NCBI GenBank assembly: GCA_026195895.1
Contig: JAPHRO010000030.1
Span: forward strand, 23,910-87,909
Length of the DNA: 64,000 nucleotides
DNA from: Gammaproteobacteria bacterium
GTDB taxonomy: Bacteria > Pseudomonadota > Gammaproteobacteria > SZUA-229
Direction: 5' to 3'
How positions within the stretch are numbered: position 1 is the stretch's first letter; each line of letters starts with the position of its first letter. The translations under genes were made by a program, and so were the position numbers. Below, one piece after another: positions 736 to 61,726 of the stretch. The notes under the pieces are model-generated. The model was not told the origin of the DNA. It was given only the letters and a program-made list of their open reading frames with translations, and ran no database searches.

Positions 736-1299
736 ATGAAACCAGAAAAACGCTGTGACTGGGTGACAGATAATGAACTGTACCGGCAATACCATGATCA
801 GGAATGGGGTGTACCCAGTTATGACGACCAGCATCTGTTTGAGATGTTAATTCTGGAAGGCGCCCAGGCCGGTTTAAACTGGATCACTATTTTAAAAAAA
901 AGGGAAGGCTATCGAAAAGCTTTTGATAATTTCGATGCGCAAAAAATGTCTCGCTATAGCCAGAATAAAATTGACAGGCTGTTGCAGAATCCAGCGATTG
1001 TGCGCAATAAATTAAAAGTCAATGCGGCAGTTAATAATGCTAAAGCCTGTCTGCGGGTGGTGGAGGAATTTGGCAGTTTTTCGGATTATATCTGGCAGTT
1101 TGTAAATGGGAAGCCCATTAATAACAGGTGGAAAAAAATTGCGGATGTGCCAGTAACCACCGCCGAGTCAGATGCCATGAGTAAAGATTTAAAAAAACGG
1201 GGATTTAAATTTGTCGGATCAACAATCTGTTACGCATACATGCAGGCAGTGGGAATGGTGAATGATCATACGATGGATTGTTTCAGGTATAAGAAATAA
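736..1299 (+). CDS. tag: DNA-3-methyladenine glycosylase I
   Basis: 187 aa; YHDQEWGVP, FEML(I)LEG(A)QAGL(N)WIT(I)LKKRE and KKRGFKFVGSTICY..MQA.G.VNDH match E. coli Tag along the full length. Confidence 0.95.
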   Translation: MKPEKRCDWVTDNELYRQYHDQEWGVPSYDDQHLFEMLILEGAQAGLNWITILKKREGYRKAFDNFDAQKMSRYSQNKIDRLLQNPAIVRNKLKVNAAVNNAKACLRVVEEFGSFSDYIWQFVNGKPINNRWKKIADVPVTTAESDAMSKDLKKRGFKFVGSTICYAYMQAVGMVNDHTMDCFRYKK

Positions 1300-1355
1300 T
1301 GAAAAATATTTTCAGAGTATGCCTTTGATTGTGCAAATAAAAAACATTGATTCAG

Positions 1356-1547
1356 CTACTCATTTTCATGGAAGGCCTCAATGATTAGTTCATCATCGGC
1401 GGATATGGATATTTTAAAAACAATAGGTCTGCAGCATACCTGGCAGTCTTCGATGTATTCCTGTTGTGCTATTGATCCATCTACCAGAATAGCAATCGGT
1501 TCGCCACAATAAGGGCAGTTCAACTTGTGTTCGACCAGATTTTGCAT
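1356..1547 (-). CDS. Small cysteine-rich CPxCG-type zinc-ribbon protein
   Basis: 63 aa; CPYCGEPI....CQVCCRPI gives two Cys pairs typical of the CPXCG small-protein family. Convergent with tag. Confidence 0.5.
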   Translation of the reverse strand: MQNLVEHKLNCPYCGEPIAILVDGSIAQQEYIEDCQVCCRPIVFKISISADDELIIEAFHENE

Positions 1548-1815
1548 CTATTTTTCTGCCAGATTGTTGATGACGGATATATTAATAATGGTTTCGTCAG
1601 TTTGCTGTTGGGTAATAATTAAGGACGGCGCAAAGCATGCGAATGATTGTGATTAATACTGCTTTGTTCTTTCCTTATACTGGATAAAACTATATTATTT
1701 GAAGTATAGTTTTTTTGAATCCATTATGCGTAGAATTATTCGACTTTTTGAAGGGATAAAGTCGTTTTTGATAATTTTTTGCTTGCAGCGTAAACAGGGA
1801 TTATAACTTTTAGGT

Positions 1816-2115
1816 ATGAACTCAATTTTAGCCAAATATAGATTACATAGCTTGCTTGTCATCAGTATGTTGTTGCTGATGATGCAGTTTGTAACGGCTG
1901 CCCATTCTATTGATCATATCTTTCATGAGCATTCGATTGAATGTGATTTATACCTTGCCTCAGAACATAATAGTTCTGGCTTGCTTAGTGATTTTATCGT
2001 TTTGTCTCCGGCTTTCCAGTCTGGTAGCGAAATAGATTTTTATATATATGCTGATATATCAGTCGATAAAATACAACCCTCAAGTCGTGACCCGCCTGCT
2101 CATCACTTTGTGTAA
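1816..2115 (+). CDS. Small secreted hypothetical protein (His-containing)
   Basis: 99 aa; N-terminal hydrophobic signal-like segment (LLVISMLLLMMQFVTAAHS); HxxxH, HEH patterns; sits directly upstream of the His-rich OM protein and the Znu-like genes. Confidence 0.35.
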   Translation: MNSILAKYRLHSLLVISMLLLMMQFVTAAHSIDHIFHEHSIECDLYLASEHNSSGLLSDFIVLSPAFQSGSEIDFYIYADISVDKIQPSSRDPPAHHFV

Positions 2116-2179
2116 TTAAAATTATTTATTTTAGTTAACAAACGTTTTTTTAACGTTTTGCTAGTGATGAAATTTAACA

Positions 2180-3460
2180 ATGAATTCTAGATATGTTTTC
2201 CCATGCCTGTTCGCAGGCATGGCTATGTCAGGTAATGTCTTATCTGAAACTTTTGATCAACAGGGTATTCAGCAACTGGAGCAGAGAGTCGCACAACTGG
2301 AGGCAGGCGCGTTACCCAATGCGGACAATGCCTTTAATCCAGCGATCAGTATTATTCTTGATGGGCGTTATGCAAATTTTGATGATAACTCTGAAGGCTA
2401 TCATTTACCCGGGTTTCAGTTAGGGGGTGAAGCTGGAGTGGGAGAGACAGGTTTTTCGCTCGGTCATACGGAGATAACTGCCAGTTCCAATATTGATAAT
2501 TACTTTTTCGGCAAAATGACTTTAGCCATTGCCGAGCACGAGGGTGAAACCGAAATTGAACTGGAAGAAGCTTTTTTACAGACGCTGGGTTTGGGGTCTG
2601 GTGTAACACTTACCCTTGGGCGTTTTTTTTCTGATTTTGGTTATCTTAATAAACAACATCCCCATGCCTGGGATTTTGCAGATGCGCCATTGGTGTATCG
2701 CGCGATGATGGGGAATCATTTAATTGATGACGGCGTGCAGTTTTTATATCTGGCGGATAGTGACATGTTCCTGCAGTTTGGCGCTGAAGCATTCCGCGGC
2801 AGCCGGTTTCCCGCAGGTGGCGAGCAGGACAATATTGGTGCCTGGACAGCTTTTGTCGAATTTGGTGACGACATTGATGACAGTAATAGCTGGCAGGCAG
2901 GCATCAGTCATTGGCGGGCAGATAATATTCATCGGGAAGGCGGGCATGGCCATGATCATGGCGGTGGCACTGCGGAAACTCCCGTGTTCATTGGTGAAAG
3001 TAACATGAGTGCGCTGGATCTGGTTTATAAATGGGCGCCCAATGGAAACCCGGTGAACAAAAATTTTAAATTACAGTTTGAATATATTCTGCGTGATGAA
3101 CAGGGTGATGTTGAGCTTGAAGGTTCTGATCCATTGGAAAGCACATCGTATGATGGAGAGCAAACAGGTTGGTATTTACAGGGTGTTTACCAGTTTGCCC
3201 GTCAGTGGCGAACCGGTTTACGCTATGACGCATTGAGTTCTGATAATCGGGCATCTGATGAGAGTGTGTTAGAAGCGGCAGGTTTGCACGATGAAGGGCA
3301 TGATCCCAGACGCATTTCTGCGATGCTTGAGTGGGTGCCTACGGAATTTAGTCGAATTCGATTGCAGTTTAATCGTGACGAATCGACCCTTGTTGCTAAT
3401 AACCAATGGTTTGTGCAGTACACGGTGAGCATGGGTTCTCATGGCGCACATCAATTTTAG
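2180..3460 (+). CDS. Putative outer-membrane beta-barrel protein with His-rich loop (porin-like)
   Basis: 426 aa; signal peptide; N-terminal coiled-coil-like QQLEQRVAQLEAG; alternating hydrophobic beta-strand pattern; C-terminal aromatic residue (…HQF) typical of OMP barrels; HREGGHGHDHGGG His cluster. Co-oriented and 6 bp upstream of a TroA/ZnuA-like binding protein. Confidence 0.5.
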   Translation: MNSRYVFPCLFAGMAMSGNVLSETFDQQGIQQLEQRVAQLEAGALPNADNAFNPAISIILDGRYANFDDNSEGYHLPGFQLGGEAGVGETGFSLGHTEITASSNIDNYFFGKMTLAIAEHEGETEIELEEAFLQTLGLGSGVTLTLGRFFSDFGYLNKQHPHAWDFADAPLVYRAMMGNHLIDDGVQFLYLADSDMFLQFGAEAFRGSRFPAGGEQDNIGAWTAFVEFGDDIDDSNSWQAGISHWRADNIHREGGHGHDHGGGTAETPVFIGESNMSALDLVYKWAPNGNPVNKNFKLQFEYILRDEQGDVELEGSDPLESTSYDGEQTGWYLQGVYQFARQWRTGLRYDALSSDNRASDESVLEAAGLHDEGHDPRRISAMLEWVPTEFSRIRLQFNRDESTLVANNQWFVQYTVSMGSHGAHQF

Positions 3461-3466
3461 TAAAGG

Positions 3467-4381
3467 ATGACTGTAATGCATAAAGTAATAAAATTTATAT
3501 TTGTTATGGCCATGTTCGCATACGCGAACATGGTAAACGCCCAGCTTAATGTATTTACATGTGAGCCGGAGTGGGCTTCACTGGCAAAAGAACTGGGCGG
3601 GGAAAAAATAAAAGTTTTTTCTGCCACCACTGGATTGCAGGACCCACATCATATCCAGGCGCGGCCCAGTTTATTAGCCAGGGCCCGACGCGCAGATTTA
3701 CTGGTCTGCACGGGTGCGGAACTGGAAATTGGCTGGTTGCCTATTCTGTTACGAAAAACGGCTAATGCTGAAATACAGCCAGGAAAACCTGGCAATCTGA
3801 TGGTAACAGAATATTTGTCACTCAAAGATAAGCCCGACCGGCTGGATCGTCGTGAAGGTGATATGCATGCGGAAGGCAATCCCCATGTGCAAACCAGTCC
3901 CTACAATATTTCAAAAATTGCACTTATTTTATTAAAACGATTGCAACAAATTGATGCGGGCAATGCGGCTGTGTACCAAAATAATTATGACGATTTTATA
4001 CAACGCTGGCAGCGAGCCATAGCAAGATGGGAAGAAGAGGCATCGGTCTTGCGCGGAAAATCCCTGATTGTATATCACAGGAACTGGGGGTATATGACCG
4101 ACTGGTTAGGTTTAAATGTTGTTGCTGTAATCGAGCCCAGACCCGGGATACCACCCAGTAGTGCCTATTTGTCAAAAATTATAAAACAGATGGAAGTGTC
4201 GCCAGCCAAAATGATTATTCATGCAGCACATCAACCGGCTAAAGCGAGCGACTGGTTATCGAGTAAACTCGCTATTAAAAAAGTTCAATTGCCGTTTACT
4301 GTGGGCGGCAGTAAAACAGCGCATGATTTGTTTTCCCTGTTTGATGAAACTATTCAACTGCTGGTGTCGGGATTGCAATAA
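3467..4381 (+). CDS. Metal (Zn/Mn-type) ABC transporter substrate-binding protein, TroA/ZnuA family
   Basis: 304 aa; signal peptide; DPHHIQARPS and EGNPHVQTSP motifs correspond to the two metal-ligand DPH / NPH motifs of cluster A-I binding proteins. Confidence 0.8.
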   Translation: MTVMHKVIKFIFVMAMFAYANMVNAQLNVFTCEPEWASLAKELGGEKIKVFSATTGLQDPHHIQARPSLLARARRADLLVCTGAELEIGWLPILLRKTANAEIQPGKPGNLMVTEYLSLKDKPDRLDRREGDMHAEGNPHVQTSPYNISKIALILLKRLQQIDAGNAAVYQNNYDDFIQRWQRAIARWEEEASVLRGKSLIVYHRNWGYMTDWLGLNVVAVIEPRPGIPPSSAYLSKIIKQMEVSPAKMIIHAAHQPAKASDWLSSKLAIKKVQLPFTVGGSKTAHDLFSLFDETIQLLVSGLQ

Positions 4382-5151
4382 TGATGGATGGTCTTGAACT
4401 AAGTATCCTGGGACCTGCTTTTATTGCGGGGCTGTTGGTGTTGATTACCCACGTGCCTCTGGGGCAAAAAGTGTTAGCACGAGGTATTATTTTTATTGAT
4501 CTGGCGATAGCTCAAATAGCGGGCTTGGGCGTGATAGCTGCCTATAGTATGGGCTGGGAAGAACAGACGTACATGGTGCAATTATCTGCCGCTTTGTTTG
4601 CTATAGCCGGTGCATTATTTTTAAGCTGGACAGAAAAATTCTGGGATAATTATCAGGAAGCAATTATTGGGGTGGTATTTGTACTCAGTGCCTGCATAAG
4701 CATTTTGTTATTGGTTGATAATCCGCATGGTGGAGAGCATTTAAAAGAACTATTAGTGGGCCAGGTGCTATGGGTTAATGTTCACCAGCTTATTTATGCC
4801 GCCACTGTTACCGGCTGCATTGTTGCATTCTGGTTGTTTTTGAAAAATAAATTATCCGGAATTTGGTTCTATATATTGTTTTCCATTGCAGTAACCACTT
4901 CGGTGCAACTGGTTGGCGTATATCTGGTGTTTTCCAGTCTTATAATGCCTGCTTTGTTTGTTTCAATAGCTGGCAGGGAAAAGAAACTGACCGATGCCTA
5001 TGTCATTGGCATAGTCGGCTATGCCCTGGGTTTATTGTTGTCGGCCTGGCTGGATTTACCTAGTGGACCCATGATTGTTGTGCTACTGGCTTTTTCCGGA
5101 GTCTTGTATGTTGCGGTAAACCGATATGTCTCTGGCCTCAAGCAGGTCTGA
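4381..5151 (+). CDS. Metal ABC transporter permease (ZnuB-like)
   Basis: 256 aa; 7-8 predicted TM segments; size and hydrophobicity profile of ZnuB/MntB-type permeases; start codon overlaps the binding-protein stop (ATGATGG). Confidence 0.75.
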   Translation: MMDGLELSILGPAFIAGLLVLITHVPLGQKVLARGIIFIDLAIAQIAGLGVIAAYSMGWEEQTYMVQLSAALFAIAGALFLSWTEKFWDNYQEAIIGVVFVLSACISILLLVDNPHGGEHLKELLVGQVLWVNVHQLIYAATVTGCIVAFWLFLKNKLSGIWFYILFSIAVTTSVQLVGVYLVFSSLIMPALFVSIAGREKKLTDAYVIGIVGYALGLLLSAWLDLPSGPMIVVLLAFSGVLYVAVNRYVSGLKQV

Positions 5152-5212
5152 CTGATGTTCCAGTGCATAAGCTATACTTGTGTATGCTACTGGATGATAA
5201 AGGTCTATTGAT

Positions 5213-5623
5213 ATGCAAAAATGTCGTGAGTGCCAGCACCGAGTGAGTGAACAGGCTTTTAGCTGCCCACAATGTGGTGCGCCTTATCCAGCCAAAGAAA
5301 AATGGGATGGCTGGGGATTTGAATATAAATCAGCAGCAGCATTCCTGGGTTGGCCTTTGCTACATATATCGTTTAAATTTCGTCCGAATAAGATGCCGGT
5401 GCCAGCAAAGGGTATTATTTCCATTGGCCAGTTTGGCATGGGTGTCATAAATATTTCGCAATTTGGTATAGGCGTGTTTAGTTTAAGCCAGTTTACGATT
5501 GCCGGATTTGCCGTCGCCCAGTTTGGAGTTGCTTATTCGCTGGTGGCGCAATTTGGAATATATGTTGAGCAGGGTTATGGACAGATGGTTGTGCAACTTG
5601 GCGAGCTTTTTTCCGGGGTATAA
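5213..5623 (+). CDS. Zinc-ribbon protein with five tandem QFGxGV hydrophobic repeats
   Basis: 136 aa; N-terminal C-x2-C-x13-C-x2-C (CRECQ…CPQCG); C-terminal half ISIGQFGMGV / INISQFGIGV / FSLSQFTIAG / FAVAQFGVAY / SLVAQFGIYV. Confidence 0.5.
   Translation: MQKCRECQHRVSEQAFSCPQCGAPYPAKEKWDGWGFEYKSAAAFLGWPLLHISFKFRPNKMPVPAKGIISIGQFGMGVINISQFGIGVFSLSQFTIAGFAVAQFGVAYSLVAQFGIYVEQGYGQMVVQLGELFSGV
5414..5590 (+). repeat. Five tandem 33-nt coding repeats (cagtttggNNtNggNgtN…)
   Basis: DNA units cagtttggcatgggtgtc / caatttggtataggcgtg / cagtttacgattgccgga / cagtttggagttgcttat / caatttggaatatatgtt, spaced 33 nt apart inside the 5213..5623 CDS. Confidence 0.5.
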
Positions 5624-5636
5624 AAACTAATATGTT

Positions 5637-6125
5637 TTAATTTGACTGTTGCCTGGTCAGGCTAATAACAACGGTGAAATAGGCAGCTATCACCCCCAGT
5701 ATCAAAGCTGAAACATCCAGCATATCAAAATGGCCATAGATAAAATAATTGGCGATAGCGTGATTAAACCAGTCGGGTAGTATGTCAATAATAGAGTCCG
5801 TCATTGATGGTTGCTGACCAATTTCAAATAGCAACTCTACCACCAGCCAGAAAATACAAATCAGACGCAGAGTTATAATATTTGCAGAAATAACCGCAGT
5901 GCTTAAAAGAATAAAAGCATAAATATGCAGAAAAGAGGGTATTGAGTAAATGATGCTGTTCGAAAAGACCTGCGGCATGAGATTTGTTTCCGGCAGGTAA
6001 TTGAGGAAAAGTGGTTGTTGGTGTAATCGAGTTGTGAGATATAACAACACACCTGTTAATAGCGCCGAAAGTGCTGCTACTAACAGGAGTGTCCTGTTCT
6101 TATTTGTCCATTTATATTGAATCAT
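5637..6125 (-). CDS. Small integral membrane protein, unknown function
   Basis: About 160 aa from MIQYKW…; four hydrophobic helices. The ORF-track start at 6188 overlaps the upstream gene, so the internal Met at 6125 is preferred. Immediately downstream of the PKD-repeat protein on the same strand. Confidence 0.45.
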   Translation of the reverse strand: MIQYKWTNKNRTLLLVAALSALLTGVLLYLTTRLHQQPLFLNYLPETNLMPQVFSNSIIYSIPSFLHIYAFILLSTAVISANIITLRLICIFWLVVELLFEIGQQPSMTDSIIDILPDWFNHAIANYFIYGHFDMLDVSALILGVIAAYFTVVISLTRQQSN

Positions 6126-6151
6126 TTTTCTGGCTGATGATTTGATTTCTA

Positions 6152-7834
6152 TTAAGGGCAATCTCCTGGGTTTGCGCCGCAACGGCAACCGCTAAGGGTT
6201 TCAATTTGAACTTCGGCCATAACGGTACCCGTAAAGGCGGCATCAATTCGGTAATACATGTTATCCGCAATATTACGCACCACGAAGGATGGTGAGTTAA
6301 TATCGCTAATCGGATTTGCATGGCTTCGACTAAATTCTTCCCAAACCGCAGGAAGAAGTATCGTGAATTCGGCCTGATCCGGGAAATTGGTGCCATCAGG
6401 AATTATGGCCTGATAAACCACCGAATCGGGAATGGGGCCACCTCCTGCTGTCGCGCTTATTTCATCACTGCCGGCTGCATCAATCTGAATATAAGTTGCC
6501 ACTTCACCCATGTCTGGTGCAAATGGCAAAGCGGTTACCAGCGACAGTGGCGTTGAGCAGGCGCCTGGTAAGCTGGTGGTGGATATACGAACAATATCCG
6601 GATAGCTATCATCAGTGCCATCATTGACCACTAGCCGAACCAGATAATTGCCATCACGATCCGGCGTGAGCTGAGTAGTTTGTGTGTCTAATGATGACAG
6701 GGCAGCCGTGCTTCCCGTCGGTTGTTTAATCAACGTCCAGACATAAGTGAGGGTTTGCATTTCGGGATCGCTGCTGCCATTGCCGTTTAAGTTGACAGTG
6801 ACCCCGGTGTTGACACTTTGATCGACGCCGCCATCGGCAATGGGTAGCTGATTATTGCTGGCGATGACGACCACGCGATCTTCGTAGATATCGTCCAGCG
6901 ATCGACTGCTGTCACGAAAGCCGTCGTTGACGCGCAGTCGAATCAGATAAGCGCCTGCGACATCGGCAATGAAAGAAGGCTGCATGCCTGTTTTATCGGT
7001 TAGCTGTGTGGAACTGCCCGTGGGTCGATAAAGCATGCGCCAGTTATAGGACAGGGGGTTGCCATAGGCGCTGTAACTGTTTTGGCCATTGAGTTGCACC
7101 TGGCTACCGATATTAACGAACTGGTCGGTGCCGGCTACGGCAACCGGTAGTGAAAAGTCGCTATTTTTTGATCGGATAATCACAGTATTGCTCGCACTAT
7201 CGACGGCACCATCATTGACGACCAGGTCGAGCATGTAATCAGTATCGCTATCAGCAACAAATGTGGTTGTGGCTGATGTTGTGCTGGAAAGTGTGGCTGA
7301 AGCAGAGCCTGGCTGGAAACTCCAGTTATACGACAGTGAGTTATCGTCGGCATCGGTCGCAGTGCCATTGAGTTGCACGGTGTCACCGACGCTCACTTCC
7401 TGGTAGGCGCCCGCTTCGGCAACCGGTCTGGCATTGCCGGTATAGGCGGTGATTCTGGTGGTGATCGATTCCTGGTTGGCGCCCGTTGAAGTTTTCAGGG
7501 TAGCAACATATTCGCCGTCTACATCCGCTATAAAACTGCTCATCATGGTGAAATCAGTCAGGACACTGCTGCTATCTGCAGGTTTGGAGGTTAATTGCCA
7601 GATAAAATCCAGATAGGCGGTATCGGGTGCGGCTTCGGTGAAATCGCTACAGCGTCCATCCAGAATGACTCGCGAGCCGGTGCGCACGTGCTGGCTTTTT
7701 CCGATGCACGATAGGGTGGTTTGTGTATAGCTATTGCTACCGGTGCCAATAATACTAAGCAGTCCAACGGCAACTACAACACCCAGTGCAGAAAATTGAA
7801 TTAAAAATTTGTAGATACTGGATCGATTTTTCAT
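6152..7834 (-). CDS. Secreted protein with four PKD/Ig-like repeat domains
   Basis: 560 aa; signal peptide (FSALGVVVAVGLLSIIGTGS); repeated ~90-aa modules each ending L(V/R)VNDG..D(S): LDLVVNDGAVDSAS, LRVNDGFRDSS, LVVNDGTDDS, plus a first degenerate copy; C-terminal Cys-rich tail CRCGANPGDCP. Confidence 0.65.
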   Translation of the reverse strand: MKNRSSIYKFLIQFSALGVVVAVGLLSIIGTGSNSYTQTTLSCIGKSQHVRTGSRVILDGRCSDFTEAAPDTAYLDFIWQLTSKPADSSSVLTDFTMMSSFIADVDGEYVATLKTSTGANQESITTRITAYTGNARPVAEAGAYQEVSVGDTVQLNGTATDADDNSLSYNWSFQPGSASATLSSTTSATTTFVADSDTDYMLDLVVNDGAVDSASNTVIIRSKNSDFSLPVAVAGTDQFVNIGSQVQLNGQNSYSAYGNPLSYNWRMLYRPTGSSTQLTDKTGMQPSFIADVAGAYLIRLRVNDGFRDSSRSLDDIYEDRVVVIASNNQLPIADGGVDQSVNTGVTVNLNGNGSSDPEMQTLTYVWTLIKQPTGSTAALSSLDTQTTQLTPDRDGNYLVRLVVNDGTDDSYPDIVRISTTSLPGACSTPLSLVTALPFAPDMGEVATYIQIDAAGSDEISATAGGGPIPDSVVYQAIIPDGTNFPDQAEFTILLPAVWEEFSRSHANPISDINSPSFVVRNIADNMYYRIDAAFTGTVMAEVQIETLSGCRCGANPGDCP

Positions 7835-16302: not shown

Positions 16303-18147
16303 ATGTCTGTACCTGAACATCAACTCATATCCGATGAATCATCATTGGAAAAATTGCAGCAGGAGACGCTGCAACAATATAGCTGGTCGTATGTGATCAA
16401 GCTGGCGCGCCGCCATAAAAAACTCCTTATTCATGCGCACATCATTGCCATACTGGCGGCTCTAGTCAGCGTGCCCGTGCCGCTGCTGATGCCCTTGCTG
16501 GTCGATGAAGTGCTGTTGCAGCAGCCGGGGGTCATGGTTGGCGTGGTGGATCAGATGTTTCCCGAGAGCTGGCAGGGCCCGGTGCTGTACATACTGGTGA
16601 TTATGCTGGTTACCATGATACTGCGTTTTATCGGGCTGGCATTTGCGGTCTGGCAAACCCGTGAATTTACCCAGGTCGCCAAAGACATTACCTATCGCAT
16701 CCGCAGTAGTCTGTTAAAGCGTTTGCAGTATATTTCGATGGCTGAATACGAAACCCTGGGCAGTGGCGCCGTGGCTTCGCATCTGGTAACTGATGTGGAA
16801 GCGATCGATGTATTTATCGGATCGGCACTGAGTAAATTTGTCGTTGCGCTATTGACCATTGTTGGTGTGGCGGTGATTTTATTGTGGATGCACTGGCAGC
16901 TCGCCCTGTTCATTCTGGTGATGAATCCGATGGTGATTTATTTCACTACGGTGCTGGGTAAAAAAGTTAAACAGCTAAAGAAAAACGAAAACTTTGCATT
17001 TGAACTGTTTCAGCAGTCACTCGGTGAAACGCTGGATGCCATCCAGCAGATCCGGGCGAGTAATCGAGAGCGTCATTATATTCTGCAGGTGATCGATAAA
17101 GCGCGCGGGGTCAAACAGCGGTCATCCAGTTTTAGCTGGAAGAGTGATGCCGCGAACCGCTTGTCTTTCTTTGTGTTTCTGATGGGCTTTGAAGTGTTTC
17201 GCGGCGTTAGCATGTTGATGGTGGTGTTCTCCAGTTTAAGCATCGGTCAGATGTTTGCCGTGTATGCCTATCTCTGGTTCATGATGTCGCCGGTGCAGGA
17301 GGTGCTGGGTATCCAGTACAGTTATTATTCTGCCAATGCCGCGCTGTCCCGTTTGAATCGATTGCTGGGTTTACAGCAGGAACCGCAGTATCCGCACAAG
17401 GCGAATCCCTTTGCCGGCAAGCACACGGTGGGACTGCGTTTGCAGGATATAGATTTCGCCTATGGTGATGGTGAGCCGGTACTGGAAAATGTGTCACTTG
17501 AAATACGTCCCGGGGAAAAAATTGCTCTGGTAGGCGCCAGTGGTGGGGGTAAATCGACCCTGGTGCAGGTGATACTGGGTTTGTATCCCCCCCACCGAGG
17601 GCAGTTGTATTTTGATGGGGTGGCAGTGACCGATATAGGGCTGGATGTGGTGCGTGAGCATGTGGCAACGGTGCTGCAGCATCCCGCATTATTCAATGAC
17701 ACTATTCGAAGCAATCTTGATCTGGGGCAGCAGATTGATGATGCAAAATTATGGCAGGCCCTCGAAATAGCCCAGCTAAAGGATGTGGTCGAGGAAATGC
17801 CGGCGCAACTGGATAGCATTGTGGGCCGGAATGGTATTCGGCTTTCCGGCGGTCAGCGTCAGCGACTGGCGATAGCCAGAATGATCCTGATGGATCCTAA
17901 GGTGGTTATCCTGGATGAAGCAACTTCGGCGCTGGATACTGAGACAGAATATCGCCTGCATCAGGCCTTGCAGGGCTTTTTACAAAACCGGACAACTTTG
18001 ATCATTGCCCATCGGCTGAGTGCGGTTAAACAGGCGGATCGGGCCTATGTGTTTGATAATGGAAGAATTATTGATGAAGGACATCACGATGAGCTGGTTA
18101 ATCGAGATGGCCTGTATCAGCAGTTATATGGCAAGCGACAGAGATAA
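16303..18147 (+). CDS. ABC transporter, fused permease/ATP-binding (MsbA-like exporter)
   Basis: 614 aa; six TM helices N-terminal; Walker A GASGGGKST, signature LSGGQRQR, Walker B ILDEATSALD. Confidence 0.9.
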   Translation: MSVPEHQLISDESSLEKLQQETLQQYSWSYVIKLARRHKKLLIHAHIIAILAALVSVPVPLLMPLLVDEVLLQQPGVMVGVVDQMFPESWQGPVLYILVIMLVTMILRFIGLAFAVWQTREFTQVAKDITYRIRSSLLKRLQYISMAEYETLGSGAVASHLVTDVEAIDVFIGSALSKFVVALLTIVGVAVILLWMHWQLALFILVMNPMVIYFTTVLGKKVKQLKKNENFAFELFQQSLGETLDAIQQIRASNRERHYILQVIDKARGVKQRSSSFSWKSDAANRLSFFVFLMGFEVFRGVSMLMVVFSSLSIGQMFAVYAYLWFMMSPVQEVLGIQYSYYSANAALSRLNRLLGLQQEPQYPHKANPFAGKHTVGLRLQDIDFAYGDGEPVLENVSLEIRPGEKIALVGASGGGKSTLVQVILGLYPPHRGQLYFDGVAVTDIGLDVVREHVATVLQHPALFNDTIRSNLDLGQQIDDAKLWQALEIAQLKDVVEEMPAQLDSIVGRNGIRLSGGQRQRLAIARMILMDPKVVILDEATSALDTETEYRLHQALQGFLQNRTTLIIAHRLSAVKQADRAYVFDNGRIIDEGHHDELVNRDGLYQQLYGKRQR

Positions 18148-35990: not shown

Positions 35991-36455
35991 TTATTCCCAG
36001 ATCAGATTAAGCACTTCTATTTTGCCAAGATTCCGGTTGATTGGACAGTCAGGGCAGCCCTGACTTGAGGGCTCATTCTGACAGCCTGCACATTTCTTTA
36101 CCTGCCTGTCTGCTGCTTTTAATTCAGCTTTGAGCAGCTTTAAATTGTTCATCTGGTCTTCGATATTTTTTATCGCGCTTTCGATGATATTAGATACTTT
36201 TTCACTGCCTTCATCGCCGGTTGAACAGGTATTTCTGGTGGTTCCAATTAATCGAATTACGTCAAGAGAAAATCCATTTTCAGCCAGATGCATAATGGCT
36301 TTCAAACGCGCAATATGTTGAGTGGAATATAAACGTGTAGCACCACCCGTTCTATAAGGCTCTATCAGTCCTTCTTCCTCATAGTAGCGAATGGTGCGGA
36401 CAGTAGTTGTTAACAAATCGGCCACATCACCAATTTTCAAGTAGTCGTTTGGCAT
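35991..36455 (-). CDS. MerR-family transcriptional regulator with C-terminal four-Cys cluster
   Basis: 154 aa; N-terminal HTH IGDVADLLTTTVRTIRYYEEEGLI; dimerisation coiled coil; C-terminal CAGC-x8-CPDC. Confidence 0.85.
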   Translation of the reverse strand: MPNDYLKIGDVADLLTTTVRTIRYYEEEGLIEPYRTGGATRLYSTQHIARLKAIMHLAENGFSLDVIRLIGTTRNTCSTGDEGSEKVSNIIESAIKNIEDQMNNLKLLKAELKAADRQVKKCAGCQNEPSSQGCPDCPINRNLGKIEVLNLIWE

Positions 36456-36683
36456 CTATAAACCTACTAATTGCGCTTCAAATCCTTCTGCCTTAACTTT
36501 ATTTAACAAAGTCAGGGCGTTAGTAATTTCTGCATCGTATGCTACGAAAAGCATATGCTCTTTATCGGTGTTGAATTTTGGAGTAATTACACCATCTACA
36601 TGGCTAAGTTTATTCATTAAGTTATCTTTTGCTTCAGTATTTGTTTTATCGTTTAAATGGATAAGTACATCTGAGTATTTCAT
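36456..36683 (-). CDS. Small hypothetical protein (75 aa), first gene of MerR-led operon
   Basis: Good SD (AGGAG-n6-ATG); predicted beta-alpha-beta-beta-alpha-beta-like composition; no Cys. Stop abuts the MerR start (36455/36456). Confidence 0.5.
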   Translation of the reverse strand: MKYSDVLIHLNDKTNTEAKDNLMNKLSHVDGVITPKFNTDKEHMLFVAYDAEITNALTLLNKVKAEGFEAQLVGL

Positions 36684-36689
36684 GGTTTA

Positions 36690-36750
36690 CTCCTGTATCT
36701 CACGTTAGCGTAAGGTCACTATCTCACGTAAACGTTAGATAGTCAAGTTG
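36690..36750 (-). promoter_or_regulatory. Promoter/operator region of the small-protein/MerR operon with direct repeats ATCTCACGT (x2) and ACGTTAG (x2)
   Basis: On the minus strand: TTGACT-atctaacgtttacgtgagatagtgacc…AGGAG-taaacc-ATG. The repeats at 36697-36705 and 36721-36729 are 24 bp apart and lie between the putative -35 and the start. Confidence 0.35.
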
Positions 36751-36988
36751 TATGGGTCGTATTTAATGTATTGCTTACAGGAAAGGGGCAGGAGATAGCG
36801 ATTAATTAATTGCGAGGCTGTTATAGCGGTGGTTTTATCTGCTCGCCGAAAACAGTTGTTTAGTCTCTAAGGTTGGAGATAAAAAACAGTGCATGGTGGT
36901 GATGAGGCTTATGATTTATTGAAATTCATAAGCCTGATATTTCTATCCGGTTTTTCTGGCGGCTATGCGCCGGGAAAGACCGGCATTA

Positions 36989-38296
36989 TTATAAATATCG
37001 CGCTATCAGGCCACGCTCCGCCATGGCTTCGGGTAAATGCAGGCGCACCTGATAGCCGCCACCCAGGGCGGCATCCATTTTGTTGCCCTTGAGATCTTCC
37101 ATGTGATCCAGAACGATATCTACGTTGCCAGATGGCATTATCAATTCCAGCTTATCGCCGACACCAAATTTATTTTTCACGTCGATTTCTGCCATGCCGG
37201 TTGCTTTATCATATGAAGTAATTTCGCCGACAAACTGTTGTTGATGGCTCAATGAATTGCCCTGCATATAATTTTGATATTCATGGGTGTGATGGCGTTG
37301 GTAGAAGCCATCGGTGTAACCACGGTTAGCAAGGTTTTCCAGTACGCCAATTAATTCCGGATTAAATTCTTTTTTATTCAGAGCGTCGTTTATAGCCTGT
37401 TTATAACTCTGTGCGGTACGCGCTACGTAATAATGGGATTTGGTACGGCCTTCTATTTTTAAACTGTCCACGCCAATTTCTACCAGCCGTTTAACATGTT
37501 CTACCGCCCGCAAATCTTTTGAATTCATAATGTAGGTGCCGTGCTCATCTTCTTCCATTGGCATCAGTTCCCCGGGACGACCGGCTTCTTCGATAAATAC
37601 TGGTTGATCTGCTTTGGGATTTCGTTCATCGCCCATATCGGATTTGCCTGGTTTATAAACGCCTTCCGCATTTTCTTCGGCAGGTGTTGTTTTGTAATTC
37701 CAGCGACAGGCATTGGTGCAGGTTCCCTGGTTGGGATCGCGATGATTGAAATACCCAGACAATAAACAGCGGCCCGAATAGGCAATACACAGGGCGCCAT
37801 GGACGAAAACTTCCAGTTCCATATCGGGACATTGCTGGCGAATTTCTTCAATTTCATCGAGCGACAATTCGCGGGATAAAATAATGCGTTCGATCCCCAC
37901 GGATTGCCAGAATTTTACCGTGGCATAGTTTACGGTATTTGCCTGAACAGAAAGATGCACGGCCATATCTGGCCAGGTTTCACGAACCATCATAATCAGG
38001 CCTGGATCCGCCATGATGAGTGCGTCGGGCCCCATTTCGATAACGGGTCGCATGTCATCAATAAACGTTTTAATTTTACTGTTGTGGGGCATCAGGTTGG
38101 AAGTGAGATAAAACTTTTTCCCCAGCTTATGCGCTTCAGCAATGCCAATAGCAAGATTCTCCTCGAGAAAATCATTATTGCGCACTCGTAAACTATAACG
38201 CGGCTGCCCTGCGTAAACGGCGTCAGCACCATAGGCAAATGCGTAGCGCATATTTCTTAAAGTACCGGCTGGCGATAATAATTCTACTTTTTTCAT
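36989..38296 (-). CDS. Peptidase U32-family protein (YegQ/TrhP-like length class)
   Basis: 435 aa; MKKVELLSPAG…, …E.HGALCIAYSGRCLLS.Y…RD.N.G.C…CRW conserved U32 Cys cluster; the C-terminal extension places it with the ~450-aa YegQ group rather than UbiU/UbiV. Confidence 0.8.
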   Translation of the reverse strand: MKKVELLSPAGTLRNMRYAFAYGADAVYAGQPRYSLRVRNNDFLEENLAIGIAEAHKLGKKFYLTSNLMPHNSKIKTFIDDMRPVIEMGPDALIMADPGLIMMVRETWPDMAVHLSVQANTVNYATVKFWQSVGIERIILSRELSLDEIEEIRQQCPDMELEVFVHGALCIAYSGRCLLSGYFNHRDPNQGTCTNACRWNYKTTPAEENAEGVYKPGKSDMGDERNPKADQPVFIEEAGRPGELMPMEEDEHGTYIMNSKDLRAVEHVKRLVEIGVDSLKIEGRTKSHYYVARTAQSYKQAINDALNKKEFNPELIGVLENLANRGYTDGFYQRHHTHEYQNYMQGNSLSHQQQFVGEITSYDKATGMAEIDVKNKFGVGDKLELIMPSGNVDIVLDHMEDLKGNKMDAALGGGYQVRLHLPEAMAERGLIARYL

Positions 38297-61141: not shown

Positions 61142-61726
61142 ATGGCTATTCCCTGGGCATTAAAACCAAGCAGCAAAAATGTAGTCGCCGATTATCATCA
61201 GTGGGTTAAAACCCATTACAAACTACACAACCGCAATCCATGTTTATGTAACTGGTTTCCATTGCGCATCCTGGTTGAATTTGCTGCTGAACATGGTGTA
61301 CGTCTGAAATTAATTTACTGGCCAGGCTCTGCTTCAACCACAGGCGGTCGCAGAGCATGGAATACTAAAAAAGAATTAGTCCATGATTCCCACGGCGGAA
61401 AATTCAATTCTAAAATAGCCTATCGACGAAAAGTAGAAAGCACAGTAACCGCGCGTATGATTGGTACGCTGAATACGTCAGCTATTTTGAAGGCTGAAGC
61501 CCGTGTGGGCGATTTGTTGTTACGAGATCTTACAGCCAGTTTTTGGCATATTGAATTAATCACCGATATAACGGGTAATGTGATTACTACCGAGGCGGGT
61601 AGTACGCCAGCGGTGGTGCCGAAGAACCATAAAGAGGTTTACGGGGACACGCTGACTGATGGTCGAAAACTTTACGAAAATAAACCCAGACGATGGGATT
61701 TTACCAGTATATGCAGTGGTGCGTGA
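61142..61726 (+). CDS. Hypothetical protein; candidate T6SS-associated Cys/His (papain-like) effector
   Basis: 194 aa; no signal peptide; N-terminal Cys pair (NPCLCNW), distal His/Asp (FWHIELITD); one gene away from tagH. Good SD (GGAGG) upstream. Confidence 0.35.
   Translation: MAIPWALKPSSKNVVADYHQWVKTHYKLHNRNPCLCNWFPLRILVEFAAEHGVRLKLIYWPGSASTTGGRRAWNTKKELVHDSHGGKFNSKIAYRRKVESTVTARMIGTLNTSAILKAEARVGDLLLRDLTASFWHIELITDITGNVITTEAGSTPAVVPKNHKEVYGDTLTDGRKLYENKPRRWDFTSICSGA

Follow-up and report, generated by a model that had tools for sequence, protein, structure and literature searches.

A putative four-gene zinc-acquisition cassette with a ZnuB-like permease that may import zinc without ATP hydrolysis

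Known zinc uptake systems and the cassette

ATP-binding cassette (ABC) importers are defined by the coupling of a membrane domain to an ATPase. Here we describe a cassette of four adjacent genes in a gammaproteobacterium (lineage SZUA-229) that appears to place the binding protein and membrane domain of a zinc importer next to a porin-like outer-membrane protein and a small His/Cys protein, and that has no ABC ATPase gene beside it. The cassette occupies positions 1816-5151 of a 64 kb stretch of contig JAPHRO010000030.1 (assembly GCA_026195895.1, positions 23,910 to 87,909). This whole stretch, hereafter the window, was analysed by computational methods only, namely sequence comparison and structure prediction.

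With Escherichia coli ZnuABC (PDB 9oko) the cassette shares a three-histidine binding protein and a permease predicted to have the ZnuB fold, the same set of transmembrane (TM) helices and the periplasmic helix α1. It differs in lacking both the ATPase ZnuC and the coupling helix α2 (ZnuB residues 154-162), in having a binding protein without a His-rich loop, and in an operon that adds genes for a porin and a small membrane protein. The cryo-EM preprint on ZnuBC shows that TM5 of ZnuB runs into the cytosol and is followed by α2, and that ZnuC contacts ZnuB chiefly via this helix and the Q-loop (PMC12236471).

Closer relatives are found in Vibrio. The omr, znuAII and znuBII genes of V. parahaemolyticus (VP_RS21430-21420) are assigned to the Zur regulon and are up 1034-, 543- and 283-fold, respectively, under zinc limitation; no ATPase is listed for this cluster, which is said to be present in V. 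vulnificus and V. campbellii as well (PMC9817125). ZnuAII is Vpa1307, called a ‘novel subfamily of ZnuA’ in 2013 (Liu et al.; PMC3794297), which is induced by zinc limitation, whose deletion impairs growth under zinc depletion and whose conserved histidines contribute to activity (PMC3794297). The Vibrio cluster resembles the window cassette in gene order, in having no ATPase gene, in a gap at the coupling helix of its permease, and in the His-rich loop and C-terminal GAHGAHxF of its barrel protein. It differs in that no small DUF2607-like gene is present in cis (ZrgD is encoded elsewhere) and in the clear Zur boxes of V. campbellii, where the window has none. A further Zur-regulated Vibrio system, ZrgABCDE, contains the DUF2607 protein ZrgD (PMC9817125), the Pfam family of which is matched by 11 of 28 small-protein homologues, but ZrgA is a DUF2796 rather than a ZnuA-like protein, the system comes with a dedicated ABC ATPase and permease, and it has no porin.

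The gene family is thus already known through the Vibrio Zur regulon, one of its components has been characterised, and the assignment to zinc is not original to this work. A literature search found no discussion of the absent ATPase and coupling-helix loss, of the porin nature of the outer-membrane ‘receptor’, or of the recurrent ZrgD-like fourth gene, and the sections of the Vibrio papers considered contain no comment on the missing ATPase (PMC9817125; PMC3794297).

All four genes of the window cassette lie on the forward strand, as open reading frames (ORFs) whose translations have the coordinates and lengths given in a first-pass annotation of this DNA. The gene for the small protein (1816-2115, 99 aa) is separated by a 64 nt spacer from that for the porin-like barrel (2180-3460, 426 aa), the stop of which is 6 nt from the start of the ZnuA-type binding-protein gene (3467-4381, 304 aa). 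The ZnuB-like permease gene (4381-5151, 256 aa) is adjacent and translationally coupled to the binding-protein gene, as had been proposed, by a TAATG overlap that joins the stop TAA (4379-4381) to the permease ATG (4381-4383). The His-rich segment HREGGHGHDHGGG is present in the barrel translation, and that of the small protein contains HxxxHxxH.

The order of the last three genes is conserved over a wide phylogenetic range. When one genome per species was scanned by pattern, 482 loci with a barrel relative emerged, of which 80 were fetched; with Sulfuricaulis limicola, Sulfurovum mangrovi and V. campbellii added, these form the set of 83 loci used below. The order barrel, binding protein, permease was found in all 80 fetched loci, which come from different species, and a small-protein homologue lies directly upstream of the barrel gene in 64 of them, several others ending at a contig edge. 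The hosts of these loci include Thiotrichaceae, Cycloclasticus, SUP05-type symbionts and their relatives, Porticoccaceae, Methylococcales, and metagenome-assembled genomes (MAGs) of Nitrospirota and Desulfobulbaceae. All four genes are also present in the cultured Sulfuricaulis limicola and, at ~31% identity, on a replicon of Sulfurovum mangrovi (Campylobacterota), and only the last three (porin, binding protein, permease) are found in V. campbellii. The permease clade is found in Gammaproteobacteria, Campylobacterota, Nitrospirota and Desulfobulbaceae; it comprises thousands of sequences, which form no fewer than 483 clusters at 50% identity. The flanking genes vary, the most frequent flanking cluster being found in 12 of the 80 loci, and this occurrence in unrelated neighbourhoods suggests that the cassette is a self-sufficient unit. 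No conserved neighbours, such as a regulator or a COG0523 gene, were found around the 80 loci.

The V. campbellii copy was found by tblastn of plasmid and chromid records. Its porin, binding protein and permease are 36, 37 and 36% identical to those of the window (E 3e-79, 1e-78 and 1e-38, respectively), and the cluster is followed by convergent, unrelated genes. The V. campbellii record NZ_CP050465.1 (2.06 Mb), which is filed as a ‘plasmid’ and almost unannotated, is evidently the second chromosome.

The permease and the question of an ATPase

The sequence comparisons and the structure prediction both place the permease in the ABC-3 (PsaC/ZnuB) transmembrane fold. It matches Pfam ABC-3 (9.6e-23, 81.5 bits against a cut-off of 20.1) in two separate stretches. 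For its AlphaFold2 (AF2) model, which has a mean predicted local distance difference test score (pLDDT) of 76.8 and a predicted template modelling score (pTM) of 0.73, the best Foldseek match is PsaC of the pneumococcal Mn importer (7kyp, TM-score 0.71-0.77), followed by other membrane domains of type II ABC importers. A single-sequence search of the Protein Data Bank (PDB) with the window permease returned no match, and a family profile was needed to reach ZnuB.

This profile, built from 24 members, matched E. coli ZnuB (PDB 9oko_B) with an E value of 4.1e-11 along its whole length except for residues 148-163, which have no counterpart in the family. When the permeases of the window, Sulfuricaulis, V. 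campbellii and Sulfurovum were aligned with ZnuB by MAFFT, a clean gap of 15-19 residues fell at the coupling helix in all four. In the AF2 model, the helices at 134-153 (TM5) and 161-178 (TM6) are linked by a loop of only seven residues (154-160), and the ZnuB helix series is otherwise repeated, including the periplasmic helix α1 (117-126). The matches to Pfam ABC-3 and NCBIfam AztB split or begin near residues 154-160, which is consistent with such a gap. By these alignments and this model, the coupling helix is predicted to be deleted in every family member aligned.

The permease family is large and well conserved, with at least 7985 homologues, 483 clusters at 50% identity among those with E ≤ 1e-30, and a mean column identity of 67-71%, which argues that it is not a decaying remnant. 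In ZnuB, Asp36 and His40 line the channel and are jointly needed for zinc-limited growth. The invariant residues D40 and Q45 of the permease family align next to or at these two positions, so that the channel residue His40 of ZnuB is replaced by Gln45 in the window protein, and the invariant F38 aligns at the Tyr33 gate of ZnuB. In some longer family members (P0297, P0335, P0334 and P0308), the TM2-TM3 loop, which should be periplasmic according to the positive-inside rule and ZnuB topology, contains His-rich insertions (for example, HHDHVHGHGHGHDH). These insertions suggest that metal capture may have moved onto the membrane component in some lineages. In none of the longer members examined has a coupling helix been regained.

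The loss of an energy-coupling element could mean that active transport has been lost with it, and the cassette might then act as a periplasmic zinc buffer or sensor, or it might export metal or hand it on to proteins of the envelope, the ZnuB-like member being a scaffold or sensor. It is also ZrgA, not ZnuAII, that is described as predominant in V. parahaemolyticus zinc acquisition (PMC9817125). However, the family-wide invariance of D40, Q45 and F38 at or near the channel and gate positions of ZnuB speaks against a non-transporting protein, the coupling to a binding-protein gene and the induction by zinc starvation are typical of uptake systems, and the growth defect of the Vpa1307 deletion under zinc limitation points to acquisition (PMC3794297). 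We consider a role other than import very improbable.

In the window, a scan of all six frames for Walker A and LSGGQ motifs and a phmmer search with ZnuC revealed no ZnuC-type ATPase; the sole ABC ATPase is a fused, exporter-type protein of 614 aa (16303-18147). These searches bear out the first-pass observation that no ABC ATPase lies beside the cassette and that a zinc-ribbon gene follows the permease gene. Across the 83 loci, which cover several phyla, no ZnuC-type gene was found within about 8 kb of the cassette, and only two small (250-251 aa) ABC ATPases occur there. Each was considered as a partner and rejected: the one near locus L034 is PstB-like and ends a pst-type operon, and that near locus L009 was identified as SufC.

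An ABC importer does not always have a dedicated ATPase; HtsBC and SirBC of Staphylococcus aureus, for example, borrow FhuC. The first-pass annotation had proposed that the ATPase of this system is encoded elsewhere, and the cassette could be a conventional ABC importer served in trans by ZnuC or another ATPase of the ABC-3 type. The type II importer fold of the permease and its match to Pfam ABC-3 are compatible with this proposal, and the searches above covered the neighbourhoods of the cassette (the window, and ~8 kb elsewhere) rather than whole genomes, which leaves room for an ATPase encoded in trans. To our knowledge, though, permeases that share an ATPase keep the coupling helix, and here the main contact of ZnuB with the ZnuC Q-loop is absent from all family members aligned. 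The absence of a ZnuC-type gene near any of the 83 loci and the self-sufficiency suggested by the unrelated neighbourhoods also speak against a partner in trans. In favour of one, Vibrio species with the cassette also have znuC and the zrg ATPase in the same Zur regulon (PMC9817125). On balance, an ATPase supplied in trans is a serious but unlikely explanation, and it appears to be a weaker one than import without ATP hydrolysis.

Outer-membrane and periplasmic components

The binding protein has a signal peptide and belongs to the cluster A-I type. It matches Pfam ZnuA (1.8e-37, 129.7 bits against a cut-off of 29), and its three-histidine site (H61, H140 and H204) is invariant in 23 sequences and aligns with the histidines of the DPH, DPH and FHPSW motifs of Synechocystis ZnuA (1pq4, 2.7e-20). 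Among solved structures, its highest-scoring relatives are zinc binders (ZnuA, AdcAII/Lmb, YcdH and AdcA). The alignment contains no His-rich flexible loop of the kind typical of Gram-negative ZnuA, and the scores against NCBIfam equivalogs are far under the cut-offs (ZnuA, 36.3 bits against 268; AztC, 63.7 against 350); by these sequence criteria the protein is a separate subfamily of ZnuA, which is also what Liu et al. concluded for Vpa1307 (PMC3794297).

These low equivalog scores can also be read as a sign that in marine oxidisers of sulfur, methane and hydrocarbons the same architecture handles a divalent metal other than zinc (Cu, Ni, Co, Cd or Mn). Many of the cassette hosts have what we take to be a copper-rich metabolism, His-rich loops and His/Cys motifs are not zinc-specific, and scans of the window gave no Zur box. 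On the other side, a histidine as third ligand is the zinc-type pattern, whereas Mn and Fe binders have Glu at that position and Asp as the fourth ligand, and the family has His there and ZnuA, AdcAII, YcdH and AdcA as its closest solved relatives. In addition, Zur-like sites are enriched upstream of a subset of the loci, the Vibrio homologues show a strong response to zinc limitation and to Zur (PMC9817125), and growth at limiting zinc is supported by Vpa1307 (PMC3794297). A metal other than zinc is therefore improbable in our judgement. The retained three-histidine site and the zinc response reported for the Vibrio homologues agree with the first-pass view of the locus as a metal-acquisition module, and zinc is most likely the metal.

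The small protein has a basic N-terminus, one hydrophobic helix, the sequence H30-x3-H34-x2-H37 followed by C43, and a C-terminal RxPP motif that is RDPP in the window and RAPP in most homologues. H30, H34, C43, R91, P93 and P94 are invariant. Pfam DUF2607 (PF10795) is matched by 11 of 28 family members (best E 4e-06) and not by the window protein, which is linked to its homologues by phmmer (1e-4 to 1e-13). The first-pass annotation had called this protein secreted; from its sequence it looks membrane-anchored and ZrgD/DUF2607-like rather than clearly secreted.

The barrel protein begins with a signal peptide and ends in GSHGAHQF. Its AF2 model (pLDDT 69, pTM 0.67) has 16 strands, joined by connections that are long and short in turn, and Foldseek compares it mainly with porins and channels of 16-18 strands (V. 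cholerae OmpT, DcaP, OprO/OprP and OmpF; E down to 4.5e-07, TM-score ~0.4). It is predicted from this model to be a porin-like, 16-strand barrel, in line with the β-barrel and porin-type, non-TonB character suggested at first pass. As for its profile family, the window protein has no Pfam match above threshold, and its homologues match BBP2 (15 of 20, E ≥ 3e-07) and Porin_O_P (7 of 20), both weakly. There are at least 5183 barrel homologues, typically 55-65% identical. The predicted 16-strand barrel, long alternate loops and C-terminal Phe are shared with OprP/OprO, DcaP and general 16-strand porins, from which the protein differs in a TM-score of only ~0.4 and the lack of a Pfam match above threshold. 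Most homologues have an N-terminal coiled coil of 35-50 residues, as does DcaP, which is reduced to ~15 residues in the window protein (alignment A1, columns 95-150).

The longest loop of the barrel (151-181) contains the most conserved motif of the family, the invariant QHxHxWDFxDxP with H160, H162, D165 and D168. If ordinary porin topology applies to the model, this loop would be the inward-folding L3, the His-rich segment at residues about 249-263 would lie in a surface loop, and the invariant H421 and H424 would be in the periplasmic C-terminal tail. The invariant His and Asp residues of the long loop, together with the His-rich loop, suggest that the barrel is selective for a cation (zinc) rather than an anion.

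TonB-dependent receptors have a 22-strand barrel, an N-terminal plug and a TonB box, and are usually longer than 600 aa. A reading of the barrel as such a receptor was rejected, as the family members are 380-475 aa long, the model has 16 strands, the fold matches are only porins, and there is no Pfam match to Plug or TonB_dep_Rec. The name ‘TonB-dependent’ is also attached to a close homologue (P0068), and the Vibrio papers call the barrel a ‘TonB-dependent receptor’ (PMC9817125; PMC3794297), which its fold and size contradict.

Regulation and the proposed transport route

In V. campbellii, the barrel gene is preceded within 70 nt by the Zur-box palindromes TGTTATGCTATAACA and TGTTATAACATAACA (positions 5936-5984 of locus L082). 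A search of the window for a Zur box at 1560-1815 and 2116-2180 had been suggested, but none was found in these promoter regions by scans with the 23-nt gammaproteobacterial consensus (best match 14/23), the 15-nt core (none near the cassette with ≤3 mismatches) and the motif suggested at first pass, GTAATGNNATTAC. The only perfect match to this last motif in the window is at 61575-61587 (GTAATGTGATTAC), and its near-matches (19 against 20.7 expected) are at the level of chance. A k-mer search of 60 upstream regions from related loci revealed no shared motif, and Zur-core-like and Fur-like sites are modestly enriched in a subset of them. Since the window copy has no Zur box and few related loci have such sites, its control by zinc is suggested by homology with the Vibrio genes. 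No Fur or Zur homologue is encoded in the window. The Sulfuricaulis cassette is adjoined by a FUR-family gene, itself beside bamE, which is probably the housekeeping fur.

A perfect 9-nt inverted repeat (AAAACTATA-N10-TATAGTTTT) is present at 1686-1713, where it overlaps a promoter-like TGGATA-18-TATAGT (1681-1710). By a rough estimate, ~0.4 such repeats are expected in the region, so that it is statistically ordinary, and no conserved counterpart was found in the 60 upstream regions. It is a candidate operator, is not a Zur box, and may or may not belong to the cassette. A perfect 7-nt inverted repeat (AAACGTT-N5-AACGTTT, 2141-2159) in the spacer between the small-protein and porin genes might act as a weak stem-loop or a processing site. 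A search of 1200-5700 against Rfam gave no match at E ≤ 1.

The next gene after the permease on the forward strand encodes a 136-aa zinc-ribbon protein (5213-5623). It was considered as a fifth component and rejected because it adjoins the cassette in none of the 80 fetched loci. The gene begins 61 nt past the permease stop with no terminator-like site between, and its product has an N-terminal CxxC...CxxC with weak matches to Pfam DZR and Zn_Ribbon and a C-terminal run of hydrophobic ‘GQFGxGV..SQFxIG’ repeats. Divergent from the cassette is a gene for a 63-aa Cys_rich_CPXG protein (1356-1547, reverse strand; PF14255, 2.4e-20), which is putatively metal-binding. Farther downstream, an ORF on the reverse strand (6152-7834) encodes an apparently secreted protein of 560 aa with several tandem repeats of ~95 aa that have an Ig/PKD-like look and carry a recurrent ‘NG..S.D.D...L.Y.W’ motif; it overlaps the start of the ORF for a 183-aa membrane protein (5637-6188). 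GC skew is positive in all 2-kb bins of the window except 36001-38000 (-0.001), and the lack of a turning point in the cumulative skew is consistent with a position inside one replichore.

The transport route that we favour has four steps. Zn2+ would cross the outer membrane through the 16-strand, porin-like channel, with the invariant His and Asp residues of its inward-folding loop acting as a selectivity site, and would be captured in the periplasm by the inner-membrane-anchored His/Cys protein and the three-histidine ZnuA-type protein; the ZrgD-like small protein may be a chaperone or a tether. The binding protein would then dock on the ZnuB-like permease, presumably a homodimer as in ZnuB, and the permease, as a facilitator gated by the binding protein or as a secondary carrier, would pass Zn2+ to the cytoplasm with no hydrolysis of ATP. 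Uptake by ZIP-type carriers is driven by the membrane potential and tight cytoplasmic zinc buffering, and import by the permease could likewise be driven by the inside-negative potential and the buffering of zinc in the cytoplasm. Import without ATP is proposed because the coupling helix, which transmits the movements of the ATPase, is lost, and because no ATPase gene travels with the cassette. We infer the order of hand-off, what the small protein does, that the permease is a dimer and, above all, the ATP-independent energetics.

Several points weigh against this proposal. First, it gives no step for the release of zinc from a high-affinity binding protein without ATP-driven opening. The neighbourhood scope of the ATPase searches and the presence of ZnuC and the Zrg ATPase in Vibrio, both discussed above, have the same bearing, as does the absence of a Zur box at the window cassette in three scans. 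Zur-core-like sites (≥12/15) occur in about 8 of the 60 related upstream regions against 1.25 expected, and several of these regions are from related genomes. The link to V. parahaemolyticus runs via V. campbellii sequences, the latter species having the same cluster according to PMC9817125, and the histidines of Vpa1307 (69, 148 and 202) match those of V. campbellii (68, 147 and 211) at two of three positions. Finally, both AF2 models, of single chains, are of moderate confidence (pLDDT 77 for the permease and 69 for the barrel).

With these points taken into account, we judge it somewhat better than an even bet that the locus is a four-component, self-contained zinc-acquisition cassette whose ZnuB-like permease imports without ATP hydrolysis; we give less weight to a different metal or to a role outside transport. 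The chances are about even for the more far-reaching statement that, in this large and phylogenetically broad clade of ZnuB-like permeases, the membrane domain of an ABC importer has for the first time been seen to do without its ATPase, working as a binding-protein-gated zinc facilitator or secondary transporter together with its own zinc-selective porin and a ZrgD-like metallochaperone.

The proposed logic, in which a periplasmic binding protein feeds an ATPase-free membrane component, is like that of the TRAP and TTT transporters. These have folds unrelated to ZnuB, ion-gradient-coupled elevator mechanisms and organic-anion cargo, and the likeness is therefore one of working mode and not of family membership. 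If the proposal is correct, a type II ABC fold can serve as a passive or gradient-driven carrier, and the cassette would represent a new class of binding-protein-dependent transporter beside TRAP and TTT. The passage of zinc across the outer membrane is poorly understood, and the cassette would provide for it a route that is based on a porin and independent of TonB; it would also hint at the setting in which the unexplained ZrgD/DUF2607 proteins work. The analysis corrects the propagated annotations ‘zinc-regulated TonB-dependent receptor’ and ‘ABC transporter permease’, and it bears on zinc acquisition by Vibrio pathogens and by abundant marine sulfur, methane and hydrocarbon oxidisers and symbionts.

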